DNA of 64,000 bases, taken from Felis catus (taxonomy: Eukaryota). Made by a program: the position numbers and the translations under genes. Position 1 is the stretch's first letter. Every line of letters starts with the position of its first letter. This document shows, in pieces, positions 8,042-31,619 of this stretch. The notes beneath the pieces are model-generated. The model ran no database searches, was not told where the DNA came from, and saw only the letters and a program-made list of their open reading frames with translations. The DNA lies in NCBI RefSeq assembly GCF_018350175.1, contig NC_058375.1, positions 93,558,001 to 93,622,000 on the forward strand, given 5' to 3'.

Positions 8042-8478
8042 TTCTTTCTTTCTTTTTTTTTTAATTTTTTTTAACGTTTATTTATTTTTGAGACAGAGGG
8101 AGACAGAGCATGAACGGGGAGGGTCAGAAAGAGGGAGACACAGAATCTGATACAGGCTCCAGGCTCTGAGCTGTCAGCACAGAGTCCGACACGGGGCTCG
8201 AACTCACGGACCGCAAGATCATGACCTGAGGCGAAGTCGGCCGCTTAACCGACTGAGCCACCCAGGCGCCCCTCTTTCTTTTTTTTTTAATGTTTATTTT
8301 ATTTTTGAGAGAAAGTGAGCCGGGGTGGGGGGTACAGAGAGAGGAGGGGACAGAAGATCCAAGGAGGGCTTCTCACTGTCAGCACAGAGCCTGACACGGG
8401 GCTCGAAGCCACGAACCATGAGATCATGACCTGAGCCGAAGTCCGATGCCGAATGGACTGAGCCACCCACACACCCTG
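8042..8478 (-). mobile_element. Two nested SINEC_Fc: younger copy (~8050-8272) inserted in the A-tail of an older copy (~8273-8477)
   Basis: Two antisense Can-SINE bodies; outer TSD acttctgtcaa(t/c)tc at 8027-8040 and 8479-8492. Confidence 0.9.
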
Positions 8479-9849
8479 ACTTCTGTCAACTCTTGCTCCA
8501 AGGCGACTCTTAGCTGGAGCCCCTTCTCGCCGTTTCCTAGGATTTTATCCACAGCCACGCCATCTTTACACCACAGCTAAATTGCTACCACGGTGTCCCA
8601 GCCACTGCTCTGTGGCTAGCCACTCTCGTCTCACTCACATCCATCCTTCCTGGAGCTGCTTGAAAACTCAACGTAGTTTTCGCCCCTCCCAAGAAGGGCC
8701 TACGTGGTGATAACCTATGAGATAAGGCAGGAAGTAGAAATAGAAAATTGGGTAATGGAAAAAGAACTGGCCAGTACTTCATTAGTCACTAATGACACAC
8801 AAAAAAACAAAAAACATGGGAGGATTCACTGAAGAGCAAATGGTTTAGGTGGATGAAAAAATAACAGCTGATACCTGTGTAGAACATTCCCTGTGCCAGG
8901 CCCTGTCCCCAGTGCTGTCCACACATTGCCTGGGAGCAGGGCCTCTTGTCCTCATTTTGCAGACAAAGAAACTAACGCAGGGAAGTTCAGTGGCTTGCCC
9001 CAAATCAAAGCAGCTTGGTTCCTGTGTCTGCTTAGCTCCTTTGCTACCAACAGCTTTCCCGTATGTCAGCAGTTACTTCCTACAAAATAAGTCAGGAGGA
9101 CAAGATACGCTCATAATAGCCATCAGAGGTATGCGATTTCCCAACATGCTGGCTCATTTTGTCACCTGTGTCCCACAGCAGCTGTGCCCGCCCATGCCCA
9201 GAGTCTCATGCCGCCTCTCACAAAATAGTCATCGGCTTCTGGCCCTTAGGCCGCTAACAGCAGGCCCCCATCCTGTGCCTAGGGATCGAATGGAGAAGAA
9301 GGCTTCCATAGCCCTTTATCGGCCTTGTCCCTCCCTCAGTGAGAAGCAGCCTGGTCTGCAGAGGTGCAGCCCTGCCTTCAACAGACACAGCCAGAATCTT
9401 CTTAAAAGTACAGCCCCATTTCAGGAGAGGACCTTTGGTAGTTTCTAGATCCATCTGGGGAGTTCCTCCTCAACAGGAGGACTGAGGGCCCTGAATGAGT
9501 ATTGCAGCCTCCACTTTCTTATCAGAAGGTAACTCCTTGTAGCCATGCCAGCCAGGGCCCCCTGACAGCAGTGGGGGCCTCCCAGTGTCTGCAGGACCCA
9601 GGGGAGGCATTGGCGACACCATCTTGGTTTGCTAGTAGAGTCCATGTATTATGGTTTCCCTCACCCTCACCCATCTGGGCATCTTTCCGGGGCTGAGAAA
9701 ATTCATCCTTCCCCCTCTAATCATTTCTGGGGCACCAAACAACCCTCTGAAAGGAACAGGATGCTAATTGGCTGACCAACTGGGCTATGGCCTATGACGG
9801 TCCCTCCAGAAGAGGTGCCAGGAAGCAACACGTATCAAGCGTCTTTTAT

Positions 9850-22944: not shown

Positions 22945-23509
22945 AACAATCCAATTAAAAAAGGCGCAAACGATCTGAACAGACATAGATATACAAAGTA
23001 GGTATACAGATGGTAAATAACATATGAAATGATGTTCAACATCATAGTCATTAGGAAATTGCAATGTAAAACAACAATGACATACCACTACACACCCATT
23101 AGAATGGCCAAATCCAAAACACTGATAACGCCAAACGCTGATGAAGATATGGAGCAGGAGGAGCTCTCCTTCACCACTAGTGGGAATGCAAAATGGTACC
23201 ACCACTTGAGAAGAAAGTTGGGCAGTTTCTTAAAGAACTACAAATACTCTTACCACAGGATCCAACAGTTATTTGGTATTTGCCCNNNNNNNNNNNNNNN
23301 NNNNNNNNNNNNNNNNNNNNNNNNNNNNNNNNNNNNNNNNNNNNNNNNNNNNNNNNNNNNNNNNNNNNNNNNNNNNNNNNNNNNNNNNNNNNNNNNNNNN
23401 NNNNNNNNNNNNNNNNNNNNNNNNNNNNNNNNNNNNNNNNNNNNNNNNNNNNNNNNNNNNNAAGGCATGGAAGGGGGAACCTTACAAAAGCATATTGCTA
23501 AGTGAAAGA
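22945..23509 (+). mobile_element. L1MC-like 3' region, left part (ERV target)
   Basis: aacaatccaattaaaaaaggcgcaaacgatctgaacagaca...gctaagtgaaaga; ORF2 C-terminal remnant ending GNAKWY. Confidence 0.85.
23286..23461. other. Assembly gap
   Basis: Run of N. Confidence 1.
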
Positions 23510-24334
23510 TGTCGTAGACTCTGGGTCTAAAGTTCTCTCTTGTCTAGCAAAAGAACGGGACGCAAGATTGAAAGCAAGAGAGGCTAATGTCTGGGAAAAG
23601 ACAAGAGCCCCGAATAAGGGTCCTTGCCTGGTATTTATTCAAATCAGAAGGCTTACAAATGTGATGGGTGTGTACAAAGGGACAAAGAAGCTGGGAACAT
23701 TAACTTGGGGACGTGAGGGAAAAGGGGGTTTTGAAGATATACAGTGTTTGGGGTTTGGGTCAATATAAAACAAAATCCGGGCGCCAGGCAGATGGGTGGA
23801 TGGCTGTTAATGGCAGATAGGAGGTTCTGGGCCTGTTTCCCTTAGCCTAGGGGATGAGACAGGTAGGGGGAATAACCTCAGGGTTGACAAGGCACCTTTT
23901 CTTTTGTTAACCCTCTCTGCTCTGGGCTGCTTTGCCTGCAGCAAAGCGGTCCATAGTCCAATTCACCGAGTTACCTAACCTGGCCCTATCCTCCTGTGAA
24001 AGCAGCTTTTCTGCCATGGTACTAAATTGGGGGTGCTTTCACCCTGAACATCTAAAATCTTGTTTATTTCCTATTCCTGTGTACTGGGCACCTTTGCACC
24101 GTTCCTAGTTTAGGCCTTTGCCTCTGCCTCTCTATTCTGGGAGCTCTGCACCCCCTCCCTATCTTGGGGTGCCTTTGCACCTCTCTATTCTTGGCATCTT
24201 TGCGCCTCCCTATTCTTGGGGTGTCAATCTGGTTTACCCAAACTCAGGTGTAAGCATTTTACGGCTTTGTATTTCTTTATGCCTTGTTAACTCATTGGTG
24301 TAAACTCGGGGGATTATTAAGCTTATCTCCCACA
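23510..24334 (-). mobile_element. 3' LTR (825 bp)
   Basis: Minus strand TGTGGGAG...CGACA; AATAAA at ~23634-23639; about 17 differences from the other LTR by eye. Confidence 0.97.
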
Positions 24335-24347
24335 GTTCCCCCTTTTT
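24335..24347 (-). promoter_or_regulatory. Polypurine tract
   Basis: Minus strand AAAAAGGGGGAAC directly before the 3' LTR TG. Confidence 0.9.
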
Positions 24348-26264
24348 GTTTTGTTTTGTTTGTTTGTTTGTTTTTTGTTTTTAGCTTCGTGTTCAAGGAC
24401 CCTCATGATGAGTTCCTGGTCCTTCTTTTGCTTTTGGATGGCTTGGAGGGTGATTCTGCAAAGACCTAAAAAGAGACACAGTAATGGCATTTTGCTTCCC
24501 AAAGTTATCCAGAATTTGAGATGGGTGCTAGCTGTAAGTGAGAAAGGATTTTAGGTCATGCCACATTTCCCAGGAATCAGTCCATTCATTTTTTAAGCCG
24601 ATCCTCTGCATATTGTAGCTGTTGGTGCAATGTCACATCTAAATCTTCTATATCTTCAGAGAGGTGGGAAGAGAAGACACTGTGAAGGTGTGTCTGGACA
24701 GCATCCCAAGCTTGGGAGTGATTATAAGGAATTCCATTCATGCAGATATGCTGGTAGTTAGGGTCACAGGGCAGTTTAGAGGGGAGGAACAAGGCCTGCT
24801 GTTTCTTTCCAAAAGTTTCACTGCAGCCTCAAGAGCTTTGAGGCGGGCCAAAACTTGTCTATCAATAGAAGTTTGGGTTATAAATTTTTTGGTAGTGTTG
24901 ACCATAAATTTATTAAGGACGTGGGCTGTCTGGATAGTATGATGCAGGCTGATTTCAGCTACAGTAGCAGAGGCGATAACACTGACTGCTGCAAGGATGC
25001 CCATGATTAACGGGCTAACAAATCTTTTTTGCCTTGCAGCAGAGTACCAGTGCTGAACAAGCTTGGAAAGCGAGCCTAGTCCTGATGGATGTCTATAGGG
25101 TTCAGAGCTATTAATAGGAACCCAGGTTGAGATGCACTAAGTACTAACAAGGAGGAGATGTTTAATTGGGTGATGTTATTATTACTTACGCAGGACATAA
25201 ACCAACCCTGAGTGATAGAGATATTATAATTATTTCCTAGTTGTCGGATCTGTAAGGTGGAGGTAGCAAAGAGAACGTAGGGAGAAGGGATGCAAATAGT
25301 GGTCCATGTGAATTAGTTATTGTACAGGGAGGTCCCAGTTAGGTTAGCATGTTGCTTTACATGAATCTCACTGTGGCTAATACTAGGAGGGAAGAAGGGA
25401 AGACTTAGCTTCCAAAGATTAACAAGCCAAGGTCCTTTTAATTTCCCTTTATGTGCAGAAATTATAGGGCCAGACAAACCTCCATCTTTCCAAAAAATAT
25501 TCTCCCTACTAGGCTGGCCAAAGGATATGGTCTTACTAGAATATTTTGTTTCAAGATGTCCTCAAGGACCCCTGTCAGTAATAGTCCAATTTCCCCAGTG
25601 AAGATGATGCTCAGTCTCTCCATAACAGGTTGTCCAGGAAATTTATTACAGGGGTGGCCTGACTTTTGAGACCAGAGCAAGCTATAACATTAGCAGTGTG
25701 AGATATGTTTGTTTTTTGAGGTATATCAAAGCATGTGGCTGAGAAAAAGGTAAAATTGACTGGCCTCGTAGAGGTTTTGGGTTGATTTTTAGTTGGAGAC
25801 CAGCAGATAAGTTGCTAAGTTTAGAAACACACATAGGAGGTGCTTGAGTAAGCCATCATTGAGCTCTTGGCATGTAAAGCCAATGCTCTTGTTCAGTTTG
25901 GAAGGGCGGGTTAAGACTGGCTCCTCCCATGAACTCTGTCATTACTGCTAATAGGAAAATCCCAGGCTAGGAGTGTTAAGCTATCAAATATAGATGGGTT
26001 CAGGAGATGAGCCCAATATGAATATTGAGCTTGGCCTGGACAAATGAAGCCAAGAAGAATCAGGGTTACACATAGAGAATTTTTGTTAATGGCAGACATC
26101 ATGGCTATCAGATGTGAATTGGGGGTACATGCAATATCATTGTATTGTAAGAGGATGCCGGCCTGGTTAGACAGGCATTGAAGGCTTCCCCATGTTCTAT
26201 CAGGGGCAAGGACTTGCGATTGTGGAGTGGCCTCAGGATGAGGAGTCCATGAAGAGGCTTCCAT
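24340..26264 (-). pseudogene. env: Decayed beta-type env (signal peptide, SU, TM)
   Basis: TWGSLQCL...YSYWAHLLNP at the N-terminus; furin site RQKR (25023-25034) followed by fusion peptide FVSPLIMGILAAVSVIASATVA; heptad SIDRQVLARLKALE; CX7C loop CDPNYQHIC; multiple frameshifts and stops. Confidence 0.92.
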
Positions 26265-26290
26265 CTTGTAAAAAGGGGGCTGGTAGCCAC

Positions 26291-26740
26291 TCACTCAGAG
26301 TCATTCTCTGGAAGTTCTGGTTCATTGGAAGATATCCTGGGGGTCTCCATTATGCCATGGTAAGGCTTCACCAAACGAGAAGGAATACACAGAAGCCCAG
26401 AATCTGAAAAGACACAAGCAAATCCTCAACCCCAGGTGGCAAGTTGAGTGGGCCCAGTCCGGTTGGGCCCCCCTTGGGGGGTTTTGCATAGCACCATAGG
26501 GTGAGAGGGTTTTTGTGATTTTGAAGAATGTCACTCAGCTGCAGTTAGTCCTTGAGGATTAAGATTTAAAAAGTGAAGAGTAATCCTAGCACTATCAAGA
26601 AGGAGCTGAGGTTGTAATGCAGACAGCCAGGGGTATCTCCCCCTTTTTGTTTTTTTAACATGTTTTTGGGCGTAATAGATGCTCATTTTACAATTGCTTG
26701 GCCTTGTGGATTACAAGGAATGGGTAATATCAACCAAGGC
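26291..26740 (-). pseudogene. pol: Integrase C-terminal remnant of pol
   Basis: IPCNPQGQAIV...KKQKGG...ITLHFLN...TAAE*H...WG*GFACVF...IPSRLVKPY match betaretroviral IN motifs (IPYNPQGQAIVER, WGRGFACV). Confidence 0.9.
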
Positions 26741-26769
26741 TTAAGTAAAACAACTTAAAAAGGCGTGTT

Positions 26770-29290
26770 GTCTTGTTGTTTTACCCTTTTTGTTAAAATT
26801 ATATATTTACTTATTTATTTATTATCATTAACAAAAATATATTATTTTTTCTGTGGTTGTTGTAGGATGCTCTAATTTCATTTTTGCTTAGCGGTAACTT
26901 ACACATTGATCATTGGCATTTGAGGGAGGGGGCTGAAGGGCCAAAGTCAAGGTCTATTCCCCTGTCTTTTTTAGTAATGTCCACATAAATATGTTTTAGC
27001 CATGTGGATATCCATTTGAGGCATACAGTGGGCTAAGTTTAGTAAAATGGCTCCCATGTATCTTAGTAAAAGCCCTTTATATATTATCCATCCCTCATAT
27101 GGCAGAGGCATCCATTCTTTTGCCAAACAGGAACAACATAAATGTGGAGGATTTTGAAGGCTGGCACCAAGAGTATTGGCATTAATTTCCCAGTCTTTGG
27201 ATCAAAGGACAAGGAATTTTAATCTTAACCCTGTATACTTTTAAAATCCATTTATTTTCTAAAAAAATTGTTTTTAATGTTTATTTATTTTTGTGACAGA
27301 GTGAGACAGAGCATGAGCAGGGAAGGGGCAGAGAGAGAGGGAGACACAGAATCTGAAGCAGGCTCCAGGCTCTGAGCTGTCAACACAGAGCCCAACTTGA
27401 GGCTCAAACTCATCAATTGCGAGATCATGACCTGAGCCGAGGTCAGACGCTCAACCCACTGAGCCACCCAGATGCCCCTAAAATCCATTTATTTTAACTT
27501 TAGTCCGTCCTGACCACACATAAAATTTCTTTTTAAAGATTTTCCTTTACGAAACTTTTACAACTTTTCTTTGCGTTTAGGTTTTGTCTCAAGCCGTTTT
27601 TCTCCAAACAACCAGTCTCTTTTAAGACAAAGTTACTTTCTTTTACCTTTAACAAAAATATATTTCCATTTTTTATCTTTTTTTTCTCTTCATATCTCCT
27701 ACTTTCCTACGTACAGAGTTGCTTTTGTTATTTTTATCAGTTTTAATTACATTTAACCAGTTGTGAATTGTCTGTTACATCAGAGAATTTTTTAGGTGGT
27801 AGACTTAAGAATCCATTAAGCATAAAGCATGGATTTAAATATTCTGTTTTTGTTGCCATAAGAAGTTAAAAGCATAAACCGATGTCTAATAAGCAATGCT
27901 TCAGCTTTCCATTTGATTCGGAAGAGGTCTAAATGTCTGAAGAACTTAATTCAATTGCTCATTTAAGCAAAGCGTTGAAGTTTTAGGTTACCAAGGATGC
28001 TGAAAGCTATCTTAACAATTACCCATGGAAACTATGAGGCAAACGAAGTTAACCATTACTTTAAGTCATCCTTTTGCTAACAAACTGGAACAGAGATAAC
28101 ATGAACTTATTTGACCGTTAGCAAACCTTAGTAGAATAAAATTTTATATTTAATGCTGATAACTTTAAAGACAGAGCCAACAAACTTGAATTAGTTTAAA
28201 CACCGAATATGCTTCATTTACCATTTAAATCCTGGGAAGTTTGTGAAAACCTTAGGAAGTTATCATAAAGCACATCCTAAATAGGATTACAGATCGTTAC
28301 AAATCTTGAAACTTTATTTATTTAACCAACGTGGCAATAAAAGATCCTAAAGGTGAACGTACAGCATTATATAGTTGTTAGCAAAACCTAGTTCCTTTAA
28401 CATTGAGAAGTTTTACCTAAGCAATCAAAGACCTGATAAAGATGAAACCTAAAGCTTTGGTTTTTTGGCAAAGAGAAAAAAACCTTCGCTTACAGTGTCT
28501 TATCAAGAGCAGAACAGTCCAAGAAAGCCTTGTTTTTTGAACAGAGAGAAAAGCAGAATTTCAACCTTATATCAGTGTCCTTTTAAAATTCCATTCATCT
28601 CGACCTTAGCAGAATAAAGTCTTATAATTTAAAAGACATGCCTATCTTAATAGTATTTTATCTGTGCCCCCTTAAAAGTTTACCACTGTTAATTTCCCCC
28701 GTGGAACCACTGAAGAAATTTAAAGTTTAAGGGGGTGTTTTTTGCCTTTTGACAGCCTGGGGAGGAGGAGTGCTGTCTGAGGCATTGATGAGTCAGATAT
28801 GCAGGCCGCACTCCAGGAGGTTCAGAAACCAGAAGGGGGGGGGGGGGTAGAGAAGAGAAGGCAGAAAAGGTGAGGAACCGCCTGGAGGCCTGAAGGCAGA
28901 CCGAAGAACGGAGGGCAGAGAAAAAAGTTCACATGGTCCTAAAGCCTGTCAGCTCAGATAGATGAGCAGATATCGACTTTTGCTTTGTTTTGTATTTGTT
29001 TTGTTTTGGTTTTGTTTTCCACTAGCGGAATTAGGCAGTCCATGTCCGGCCAGAAGACAGCGAAGTTCCCCGAAACAAAAGGAGTTTTGGCAGCTGCTTG
29101 GGAATATTCCTTAACATCTTTGTCCCGAGGTAGACTAACCAGAGAGAGTTGGCTCTAATCATCATAGTTATTAATCCAGGAAATGAGTGCGGGAGAAGCC
29201 CTCACATATAGTCAGAGTAACCAGAGTGTATTAGGAGAAACAGTGAGAGAGAGAGAGTTAGAGTCCCCTGTATTAGAGATGGCCTCTGTA
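26770..29290 (-). mobile_element. AT-rich non-coding internal segment replacing CA-CTD/NC/pro/RT/RH; MER4-group (ERV1) internal-like
   Basis: No retroviral enzyme motifs found; minus strand aggtctttgattgcttaggtaaaacttctcaatgttaaaggaactaggttttgctaacaactat...gatctgtaatcctattt resembles recalled MER4-group internal consensus. Confidence 0.6.
27259..27478 (-). mobile_element. SINEC_Fc inside the provirus
   Basis: Full body; 17-bp TSD taaaatccatttatttt at 27242-27258 and 27479-27495. Confidence 0.95.
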
Positions 29291-30198
29291 AAATACACCG
29301 CACTATTTCAGTGCATTGATTTACTGACAATGATTGGAAGCTGGGCTCGCTGCCTTGGTTGGAAATACTGCCCTACATCAGTTGTTTAAAAGACACCGGA
29401 ATAGCAGCAGCAAAGTTCTGCACAGCACTAGTCACGTAAGCAGCATGAAACTCTTGGGCACAGACAGCATACTGGGCTGGGGTCCGAATGATGTTCTGAA
29501 GAGAGCCCAGTCCCAGGCACACATGGAATGAGTGCCATGAATATTTTCTAAAATACCGATTGTAAAAAGGCTGGGATGGACATACAGCCTAACTGATTTT
29601 TGCAATTCTTGTAGTGTTGGAAAGAGCAGGCCTTCATGGCCACATTGCTCATTTTTTCTGACAACAGGAAACAGCTGGAAATTACTGGCCTTATGGACTT
29701 TTTCAATATACTTGTGCATTGGGGTGAGGACTTTATCAGAGTAGGTCAGTGAGGTTTTCAGAGGCTCCATACCGTCCCACCCTTTTGGGGGAGGGGGAGT
29801 ATCTTCTGGCTGTAAAGGAGCCAGAGGCACAATCTGAGTATAGGGGGAGTGAGATCTTTCCTCCTTTTTAGATAACTTTACGTCTTCTGTCTTCCTGTCT
29901 TCTTCTTCGTATGCATTGTCCAAGCTCAAGGGGGGAAGGGCAGTGCGGACAACGGACCAGGTGAGGATTACTTTAGGGGGGACATTAGCCCCTTTAGAAT
30001 GCCTGGCCTGCATTATTTTTTCTACTCCTTCCCACACTTCAAGATCATAAGTTCCTTGTTCTGGGGACCAAGGGCAATTTTATTGGATAGCCAATAATCT
30101 AAGGAGAGCCATATAATTTACGGCAGTCCCTGTTGCCTCTCCTAGGGACTGAAGAATTCAAATATAGCGCTTTTATTCAGGGGGAGGGAGTTTCCCAT
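29290..30198 (-). pseudogene. gag: Truncated beta-type gag (MA, proline-rich spacer, CA N-terminal domain)
   Basis: ATG at 30198 gives MGNS...; CPWSPEQGTYDLEVW...VPPKVILTWSVVRTAL (Gag_p10-like); FPVV...LQELQKSVRLY...FTIGILE...WDW (CA); early stops and frameshifts. Confidence 0.92.
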
Positions 30199-30413
30199 GA
30201 TAGATCTCTCAAAAAGTTCCGCAGCAGCGAATCCTAATATAGTTTCGCTTTGTCCCTTACCTGGTCAGGTAGAGACTGTACCTGGTGCATTTTTTTCTTT
30301 TATTCTTTCTTGGAGCTCCTTGATCGTTGCGCAGCATCCTGCAGTCCTTGTGTCGCACTGCCTGGCCACATAGGCTCCTTGTCCACGTTGGCCCATAGTC
30401 CCCCTTTCTTTCT

Positions 30414-30431
30414 ATCACGTCAGGGTCACCA
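30414..30431 (-). promoter_or_regulatory. Primer-binding site, tRNA-Trp
   Basis: TGGTGACCCTGACGTGAT, 2 nt after the 5' LTR; 17/18 to the tRNA-Trp PBS TGGTGACCCCGACGTGAT, with the difference at a CpG. Confidence 0.9.
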
Positions 30432-30433
30432 TC

Positions 30434-31256
30434 TGTCGTAGACTCTGGGTCTAAAGTTCTCCCTTGTCTAGCAAAAGAACGGGACACAAGATTGAAAGCA
30501 AGAGAGGCTAATGTCTGGGAAAAGACAAGAGCCCCGAATAAGCTTCCTTGCCCGGTATTTATTCAAATCAGAAGGCTTACAAACGTAATGGGCGTGTACA
30601 AAGGGACAAAGAAACTGGGAACATTAACTTGGGGACGTGAGGGAAAAGGGGGTTTTGAAGATATACAGTGTTTGGGGTTTGGGTCAATATAAAACAAAAT
30701 CCGGGCGCCAGGCAGATGGGTGGATGGCTGTTAATGGCAGATAGGAGGTTCTGGACCTGTTTCCCTTAGCCTAGGGGATGAGACAGGTAGGGGGAATAAC
30801 CTCAGGGTTGACAAGGCACCTTTTCTTTTGTTAACCCTCTCTGCTCTGGGCTGCTTTGCCTGCAGCAAAGCGGTCCATAGTCCAATTCACCGAGTTACCT
30901 AACCTGGCCCTATCCTCCTGTGAAAGCAGCTTTTCTGCCATGGTACTAAATTGGGGGTGCTTTCACCCTGAACATCTTAATCTCGTTTATTTCCTATTCC
31001 TGTGTACTGGGACCTTTGCACCGTTCCTAGTTTAGGCCTTTGCCTCTGCCTCTCTATTCTGGGAGCTCTGCACCCCCTCCCTATTTGGGGGTGCCTTTGC
31101 ACCTCTCTATTCTTGGCATCTTTGCGCCTCCCTATTCTTGGGGTGTCAATCTGGTTTACCCAAACTCAGGTGTAAGCATTTTACGACTTTGTATTTCTTT
31201 ATGCCTTGTTAACTCATTGGTGTAAACTCGGGGGATTATTAAGCTTATCTCCCACA
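30434..31256 (-). mobile_element. 5' LTR (823 bp)
   Basis: Near-identical copy of 23510-24334, followed on the minus strand by the PBS. Confidence 0.97.
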
Positions 31257-31619
31257 GGAAGATGCCAACCTGAAAAAGTCGTATACTATGTTCTATGAAC
31301 CCAACTGTATGACATTCTGGAAAAGGTAAAACTATGGAAGCAGCAAAAAATATGTATCAATGGTTGCTAAGCATTTAGGGAGAAGGAAGGATGANNNNNN
31401 NNNNNNNNNNNNNNNNNNNNNNNNNNNNNNNNNNNNNNNNNNNNNNNNNNNNNNNNNNNNNNNNNNNNNNNNNNNNNNNNNNNNNNNNNNNNNNNNNNNN
31501 NNNNNNNNNNNNNNNNNNNNNNNNNNNNNNNNNNNNNNNTTGGTAATGGTGTGTCAATGTTGATTCATGGCTTGTAACAAATGTACCACACTTGGGATGT
31601 TGGTAGTAGAGGCAGCTGT

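Follow-up and report, generated by a model that had tools for sequence, protein, structure and literature searches.

A provirus of Felis catus, lying on the minus strand at positions 23510 to 31256 of the window (the whole 64,000-nucleotide stretch of DNA analysed here), combines closely similar LTRs with an interior in which noncoding DNA stands in place of the 3′ part of gag, pro, and most of pol. This raises the questions of where the filler came from, how the element multiplied, and when it was inserted. The anatomy described in a first-pass annotation of the sequence (two LTRs, primer-binding site, polypurine tract, 5′ half of gag, integrase tail, and env) was confirmed (Table 1), and its count of about 17 LTR differences resolved into exactly 15 substitutions and 2 one-base indels. 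The two copies of the target-site duplication differ at one of six positions. A Pfam scan of pieces of the window matched 3 of 12 stretches at an E value of <0.001. Positions 29435 to 30079 of gag matched Gag_p10 (E = 4e-8) and the N-terminal part of Gag_p24 (E = 4e-4), and no longer homologues of the gag stretch were found. GP41 was found in two env pieces, with no TLV_coat; a CX7C loop, a motif diagnostic of beta-type transmembrane proteins, is also visible in env. The integrase tail gave no direct Pfam match in the pieces searched. As the annotation had stated, RT is lacking: database RT yielded 0 HSPs by tblastn against the window, and when gag 3′-pro-pol of a pol-bearing relative was compared with the window by tblastx, a SINE was the sole match.

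Table 1. Features of the provirus and its target site, in window coordinates
Feature	Positions	Strand	Basis or remark
5′ target-site duplication copy, 6 bp, TCTTCC	31257..31262	(-)	
5′ LTR, 823 nt, TG...CA	30434..31256	(-)	
Primer-binding site, complementary to tRNA-Trp(CCA)	30414..30431	(-)	17/18 matches with the genome's own tRNA-Trp gene
Class II gag 5′ half (matrix and capsid start), broken, ends at junction 1	29290..30198	(-)	Pfam; collinear with pol-bearing L051 up to the junction
Junction 1, gag/filler	29287..29290	(-)	Same base in 10/10 aligned chimeric copies
Filler, noncoding patchwork	26722..29288	(-)	Common to class I ERV families, same polarity
Filler piece exclusive to longest subfamily	28212..28609	(-)	84-89% like a class I family (L068, L069, L097, L099)
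Class I family L068, L069, L097, L099			LTRs of 300 nt
Carnivore SINE, private to window copy	27259..27478	(-)	17-bp target duplication, 27479-27495 and 27242-27258
Filler piece of medium and long subfamilies	26854..27258	(-)	83-87% like another ERV group (L089-L093, L096, L102)
Junction 2, filler/integrase tail	26720..26730	(-)	Same place in 11/11 aligned chimeric copies
Integrase C-terminal tail, broken	26293..26721	(-)	Collinear with L051, whose counterpart matches IN_DBD_C
Env remnant with beta-type transmembrane part and 12 breaks	24400..26310	(-)	Start approximate; Pfam GP41, E = 6e-9 and 3e-6
Polypurine tract	24336..24346	(-)	
3′ LTR, 825 nt	23510..24334	(-)	
3′ target-site duplication copy, TCTTTC	23504..23509	(-)	

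The filler is about 2.57 kb long. Its junctions had been placed at ~29290 and ~26770; the first estimate was accurate, while the second junction lies at about 26725. The description of the filler as AT-rich suits its 3′ part (GC content of 0.32 to 0.34) but not its first 590 nt, which are 47.5% GC. Its description as unrelated DNA had to be abandoned, since it matches other ERV families at 70 to 89%. These relatives carry Gag_MA/Gag_p30, MLVIN_C, or TLV_coat, and they share the polarity of the filler wherever a primer site or gene sets the orientation. The filler is a patchwork common to class I (gamma-like) ERVs, and none of its six ORFs had a Pfam match. It may be homologous to MER4I/MER57I. 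Donor primer sites carry the labels "Glu" and "Ser," which we treat as assumptions; comparison of one donor primer site with tRNA-Glu gave no match. The filler may have been gained in nested steps, short, then medium, then long, and the filler-length classes are only partly clades in the gag tree. The SINE, which the annotation had overlooked along with its target duplication, is lacking at the same site in all other copies covering that position. Several class I backbones with differing primer sites hold the filler in the polarity seen in the class II backbone, and in L069 it again lies between a truncated gag and an env tail. A bolder idea, which we regard as doubtful and which also draws on the excess of chimeric copies over their pol-bearing parent (about 7 to 1), would make the filler a selfish cassette of RNA, carried by template switches from one retrovirus family to another, unrelated one, replacing pol and conferring an advantage in cis through packaging or export.

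The structure might have been unique to this locus, an objection foreseen in the annotation. Genome searches, each scoring the best 40 candidates, showed otherwise: junction 1 was spanned by 34 of 40 scored matches (74 to 87% identity), corresponding to 29 loci after near-identical duplicates were collapsed. The chimeric family has at least 29 copies, and its junctions, common to many loci, bear out the proposal of a non-autonomous class II family. A junction 1 pattern gave 24 matches versus 1 for the control; two of the 24, L126 and L127, were rejected as non-family loci. Helper and donor sequences have 2 to 3 nt in common at junction 1; for microhomology at junction 2, the closest donor type lay outside the alignment, which held 11 chimeric copies. 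Because each copy carries its own target duplication, the copies represent separate integrations, and despite base-exact common junctions (~29 loci) they are 8 to 25% apart. Judged from these common junctions, the family, now extinct, would have been mobilised in trans.

The claim that the element was dead as a coding unit before it integrated holds for the family-wide loss of gag 3′-pro-pol and for two inherited env frameshifts, which the window copy shares with 7 of 13 chimeric copies and 14 of 20 copies, but it does not extend to most lesions. Eight of the 12 env breaks are private to the window copy, and dN/dS for private changes in the chimeric group was 0.93 in env and 1.05 in gag (near-identical duplicates L013, L029, and L057 were dropped before counting, as were copies below 75% coverage for env and 70% for gag); most stops and frameshifts are private and accumulated neutrally. 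The dN/dS of 0.42 for shared variants, a figure inflated by recurrent CpG changes, was left uninterpreted. An apparent stop in 19 of 22 gag copies was disregarded, as it stems from a frame artefact close to the junction.

Four distinct pol-bearing loci with the same LTRs emerged among 16 of 16 candidates. They supply the candidate helpers for which the annotation had recommended a search, but RT is broken in all four. At least 29 chimeric copies stand against these 4, a ratio of about 7 to 1, and helpers and chimeras are not set apart in the env tree. One of the four, L051, whose LTRs nest inside the family LTR tree, encodes a capsid C-terminal part (Gag_p24_C), a zinc finger (zf-CCHC_5), dUTPase (E = 4e-12), RT, thumb, RNase H, and integrase; the window copy lacks the dUTPase region. 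Gag matrix and capsid, the dUTPase of L051, and a GP41-type env make the backbone class II and beta-like. The best PDB match of RT was 7sr6, "Polymerase" (E = 1e-60), which we take to be the HERV-K RT, and the best full-length database matches reached 50 to 53%. The primer site matches tRNA-Trp rather than tRNA-Lys (17/18 in the window, 18/18 in L034; 16 copies compared), whereas betaretroviruses use tRNA-Lys according to the part of PMC3621094 consulted, and in this the family departs from the genus betaretrovirus. Priming by tRNA-Trp would be in keeping with a lineage intermediate between alpha and beta. The four loci may belong to one of the felid class II groups FcERV-beta1 to beta4 or to the "alphabeta" clade, which the available parts of PMC4133949 and PMC4373062 define from pro-pol.

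The annotation had dated the integration to a few million years ago. At the adopted substitution rate of 1.8e-9, taken from the portion of PMC4643047 consulted, the element looks about 4 Myr old by its LTRs, which differ by 1.3% outside CpG sites; 20 to 35 Myr is likely. The closest copy is 8.9% away in gag, 11.3% in the filler, and 8.1% in env. The env tree is star-like, with a window tip of 0.067. In the LTR tree, the window pair is joined by a private stem 0.076 long, from which tips of 0.014 and 0.007 arise; solo LTRs in the same clade have tips of 0.05 to 0.09. Both window LTRs share 65 derived changes, versus 9 and 6 found in one alone. The private SINE has a non-CpG distance of 6.5% from its column majority and has lost 10 of 12 CpGs, keeping 2. 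Elsewhere in the family, LTR pairs differ by 0.3% to 16% despite similar internal age. Conversion tracts were found in 4 of 10 sister LTR pairs and no significant tract in the other 6, with over-long identical runs in L015, L049, L016, and L030 (P = 0.0002 to 0.004). The four most similar pairs (0.3 to 3.3%) have 3 mismatches in 24 target-duplication positions (P = 0.007) and 10 in 68 primer-site positions; target duplications of L025, L026, L028, L031, and L050, whose LTR ends could not be fixed, were excluded from the counts. PMC4643047 reports that LTRs of cat and bat ERVs have undergone conversion. The best reading of these comparisons is that the element was probably inserted about 20 to 35 Myr ago and that its LTRs were homogenised later, which the annotation itself had listed among the outcomes that would refute it; the younger date is not supported.

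We consider it probable that class I DNA replaced gag 3′-pro-pol by template switching, that the recombinant spread by means of a helper about 20 to 35 Myr ago, and that the LTRs were converted afterwards. Class II and class I RNAs would have been packaged together, a template switch would have exchanged gag 3′-pro-pol for filler, the product would have multiplied with proteins of a pol-bearing helper, and gene conversion would later have made the window LTRs alike. The last step could be dispensed with if a decayed, SINE-carrying provirus had been copied into this site about 3 to 6 Myr ago with the help of another class II virus and its donor then lost or left unassembled. Such a late re-insertion would suit the low LTR divergence, the nearly intact primer site, and the dispersed LTR differences: the 15 substitutions are unclustered (longest run, 222 nt; P = 0.13) and not enriched at the ends (P = 0.75), so that at this locus one has to suppose conversion of the entire LTR and fresh mutations thereafter. 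It would also suit the CpG content, since the window LTRs keep 13 and 12 of 29 CpGs versus 2 to 11 of 29 in 20 relatives, an excess that otherwise needs GC-biased conversion or some other cause. We nevertheless think it unlikely. No close donor or sister appeared among the best 40 candidates of each genome search, where the best matches were 87, 92 (half the query), 86, 89 (partial), and 90%; the env search, with 40 of 41 candidates scored, was nearly exhaustive (best, 90%), and the best other LTR among the best 40 of 1450 candidates reached 86%. Every pol-bearing locus has a broken RT. The same singleton pattern accompanies conversion tracts and decayed primer sites in L015, L049, and L016, and the target duplications of L015 and of the window element are mismatched, although the single window mismatch (P = 0.10) and the lone primer mismatch, at a CpG site, do not discriminate between the datings.

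It is more doubtful still that the LTR likeness is partly an artefact of assembly or polishing. The LTRs of L015, with 704 identical bases and differences confined to the last 5, show a pattern that polishing could yield; the window LTRs nonetheless differ at 17 places, and the flanks and target duplication are coherent. Words of the internal region were found in 19 of 24 sequencing runs (18 from one organism and 1 from a second; 3 runs were unindexed); these 19, from 7 studies, contain 0.60 to 0.69 of the words, which bears on the internal part and not on the LTRs. Two small runs from a third organism contained 0.00 and 0.04, a result that does not show absence. The least probable account has the chimera spreading as DNA, by ectopic gene conversion or segmental duplication, with neither RNA nor helper. 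Conversion was active within the family and segmental duplicates exist (L012/L013, L024/L029, and a triple on C43), but this account is largely refuted by the separate contigs, distinct flanks, and own target duplications of most copies, and about 29 loci with base-exact junctions are yet 8 to 25% divergent.

Template switching followed by helper-borne spread invites comparison with known systems. The annotation likened the architecture to mouse ETn; the likeness to a non-autonomous partner stands, but recKoRV and Harlequin are closer analogues because class I relatives of the filler can be identified. As the available part of PMC6466679 describes them, ETn elements are coding-dead class II partners that share LTRs with a coding relative, MusD, and outnumber it (about 240 versus 100 copies); they are env-less and still active, and their trans-mobilisation has been demonstrated. 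The cat family likewise pairs noncoding copies with a coding relative through common LTRs, but it keeps env remnants, is extinct, with no young copies among the best 40 candidates per search, and has a filler with identifiable relatives. The koala recKoRVs, recombinants of KoRV and PhER, retain viral LTRs, the 5′ part, and the env end around a middle from another endogenous retroelement, have breakpoints fixed across several loci with target duplications, and need their parent's enzymes (PMC6112702, in the part consulted). A retroelement-derived middle and identical breakpoints at independent sites with target duplications also characterise the cat family. According to the same source, recKoRVs are polymorphic, date back <50,000 years, and have a gammaretrovirus backbone, whereas the cat family has a class II backbone, a stepwise class I-related filler, most of env, copies 8 to 25% apart, and an age of probably tens of millions of years. 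HARLEQUIN, a human ERV1 mosaic (LTR2-HERVE-MER57I-LTR8-MER4I-HERVI-HERVE-LTR2), is similarly non-autonomous, is ascribed to co-packaging and polymerase jumps, and was amplified after recombination, but consists of class I families only (consulted parts of PMC5753468 and PMC4724089). The latter assigns most recombinants to a single class, with env captures as its interclass examples; the interclass piece in the cat family is instead a noncoding pol replacement. No description of the chimera was found in the literature searched, Repbase and Dfam being outside that scope; the portions of PMC13568524 and PMC12584738 consulted do not cover felids, and those of PMC4133949 and PMC4373062 describe no chimera for felid class II ERVs.

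Those felid surveys take pro-pol as their starting point. The chimeric majority has none, and pol-less majorities such as this one are invisible to them. The cat family represents exchange across ERV classes, repeatedly and with no env capture. It also urges caution in LTR dating, the window element having an apparent age of about 4 Myr against a likely 20 to 35 Myr; decay of primer sites, target duplications, and SINEs provides independent clocks that expose the error. If the proposed history is true, the family would be a fossil, completed counterpart of the process now under way in koalas, in which recombination with resident elements cripples an incoming retrovirus and yields a recombinant that goes on to outnumber its parent.

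A target duplication of 6 bp, mismatched at one position, borders the provirus. Between the LTRs, 823 and 825 nt long, there are 15 substitutions and 2 single-base indels. In Pfam searches, the gag remnant matched Gag_p10 and the N-terminal capsid domain, and env matched GP41. No RT was present in the window copy, and a relative's gag 3'-pro-pol stretch found no match in it apart from a SINE. The 17 LTR differences and the absence of RT reported in the first-pass annotation are reproduced here. Compared with a tRNA-Trp gene from the same genome, the primer-binding site matches the gene's 3' end at 17/18 bases. The proteins of the lineage are beta-like, but it lacks the Lys primer that betaretroviruses use according to PMC3621094.

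Coordinates of the provirus and its surroundings in the window
Feature	Position	Strand
Chimeric provirus	23510-31256	minus
LTR	23510-24334	
LTR	30434-31256	
Filler/integrase junction	about 26725	
Filler piece of the medium and long classes	near 26854-27258	
SINE private to the window copy	27259-27478	
Composite filler also found in non-beta elements	27942-29165	
Additional filler piece of the long class	28212-28609	
Enclosing sequence, presumably old L1-like (from its look and an ORF)	23017-23509 and 31257-31390	

The first-pass annotation had suggested looking for other loci with the same junctions and for a same-LTR helper. Among the best 40 of 113 candidates for a 301-nt query across the gag/filler boundary, 34 spanned the junction (29 once near-identical duplicates were merged) and 6 covered the filler side only. 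This junction was base-identical in 10/10 aligned copies; in the alignment, the pol-bearing relative L051 runs on in gag at that point and four donor loci join there. The filler/integrase junction was the same in 11/11 copies, and copies with two clear ends had their own target duplications. A pro-pol query, with 16 of 16 candidates scored, turned up four distinct pol-bearing loci of the same family, one of which (L051) retains capsid C-terminal, zinc finger, dUTPase, RT, thumb, RNase H, and integrase domains. The RT of all four is broken across several frames, with stops. The internal region of the window copy was present in 19 runs from 7 studies under two organism labels. Some family copies lie in near-identical, often inverted segmental duplications (L012/L013, L024/L029, the L041 pair, and a triple on contig C43). 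One locus (L047:2620-8876) holds two filler blocks separated by an inverted piece; one of the blocks adjoins the integrase tail.

We compared env across 20 copies, 13 of them chimeric. Of the 12 breaks in the window copy, 8 are private and 2 recur in just one or two of the others; a frameshift is common to 7/13 chimeric copies, and a second frameshift occurs in 14/20 copies, including 2/4 pol-bearing ones. The dN/dS of private changes in the chimeric group was 0.93 for env and 1.05 for gag. From these break counts and ratios, pol and probably also a functional env were already gone from the lineage when the window copy inserted, as the first-pass annotation held for the coding unit as a whole, but the bulk of the copy's coding damage is later neutral decay.

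With 1.8e-9 taken from PMC4643047 as the felid rate, non-CpG LTR divergence gives 3.6 Myr for the window copy. Corresponding arithmetic yields 20 Myr for L051 and 27 Myr for the sister copy L030, and a lineage divergence of 6.3% gives about 35 Myr, an upper figure. No relative was nearer to the window copy than 8.9% in gag, 11.3% in the filler, or 8.1% in env; the closest other LTR was 86% identical (best 40 of 1450 candidates) and the closest other env 90% (best 40 of 41). Env sequences form a star-shaped tree in which the window tip measures 0.067. In the LTR tree, the window pair sits on a private stem of 0.076 with tips of 0.014 and 0.007, and solo LTRs in its clade have tips of 0.05-0.09. 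The window LTRs have 65 derived changes in common and 9 and 6 individual ones; those of L030 have 24 in common and 55 and 40 individual. The private SINE has lost 10/12 CpGs; felid SINE subtypes are dated in the accessible part of PMC4084570.

LTR pairs in the family are 0.3% to 16% apart despite similar internal ages. Over-long identical runs occur in 4/10 sister pairs (L015, 704 nt; L049, 541; L016, 221; L030, 114; p<=0.004), with differences concentrated at the LTR ends in L049 and L016. In the four most similar pairs, target duplications mismatch at 3/24 positions (p=0.007), and the primer site, which reverse transcription tends to restore, mismatches at 10/68, 9 of these in the three sisters among the pairs. 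Some observations at the window locus itself speak against conversion there: no clustering of LTR differences was found (p=0.13), target-duplication and primer-site mismatches do not discriminate, and its LTRs keep 12-13/29 CpG-type sites versus 2-11 in 20 relatives. Low methylation or GC-biased conversion might account for these retained sites. On the strength of the SINE clock, the sisters' behavior, and the failure to find a donor, we infer conversion at this locus, and the integration date of a few Myr first suggested is most likely wrong. The same under-dating is described for cat and bat ERVs in the portion of PMC4643047 available. The L015 LTRs (L015:1108-1816 and 8207-8915), identical across 704 nt, mismatch at 2 of the last 5 LTR bases, 2/6 target-duplication bases, and 3/17 primer-site bases; either the pair was fully converted very recently or its likeness is a polishing artefact. 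The L025, L026, and L050 pairs, 15-16% apart and with LTR ends that could not be placed, may be the oldest insertions or hybrids between loci.

The filler matches other ERV loci at 70-89%. Markers of class I occur in several of these loci (Gag_MA, Gag_p30, and TLV_coat in L069; MLVIN_C in L044), with domain matches in 13/51 donor stretches versus 0/6 window filler stretches. Wherever readable, filler orientation follows donor transcription polarity, as template switching at the RNA level would predict. Chimeric copies fall into short, medium, and long classes: the medium class has a piece resembling L089-L093, and the long class, which includes the window copy, adds one resembling the 300-nt-LTR family L068/L069/L097/L099. 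In the gag tree, the window copy lies in a supported clade of 7 containing all 4 long copies analyzed; medium copies do not form a single clade. The nesting of these classes suggests repeated capture while replication continued.

The 300-nt-LTR family (L069:1234-8030; also L068, L097, and L099) is class I and combines a truncated gag and an env tail with the filler of the window element; it is a Harlequin-like carnivore family with the same pol-replacement layout. Other non-beta elements (L063-L067 and L101; L064, some 3.4 kb long, has LTRs of 220 nt) carry composite filler at about 85%, including the long-subfamily piece, which suggests that families have exchanged filler. At L059:5739-7023, a locus present three times on contig C47, a filler-bearing class I element lies within pol of a pol-bearing copy; this is a secondary antisense insertion, whereas window-type chimeras carry filler in sense.

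With over a thousand LTR candidates, the family probably has a Repbase or Dfam entry under some name. No description of the chimera was found in the literature searched. The kind of mechanism is already known from recKoRV (PMC6112702), HARLEQUIN (PMC5753468 and PMC4724089), and ETn/MusD (PMC6466679). Unlike these systems, as far as the accessible text of those sources describes them, this family has a class II, Trp-primed backbone and a non-env, class I-related replacement gained stepwise, and its chimeras exceed the parent about 7 to 1. The chimeric element is real.
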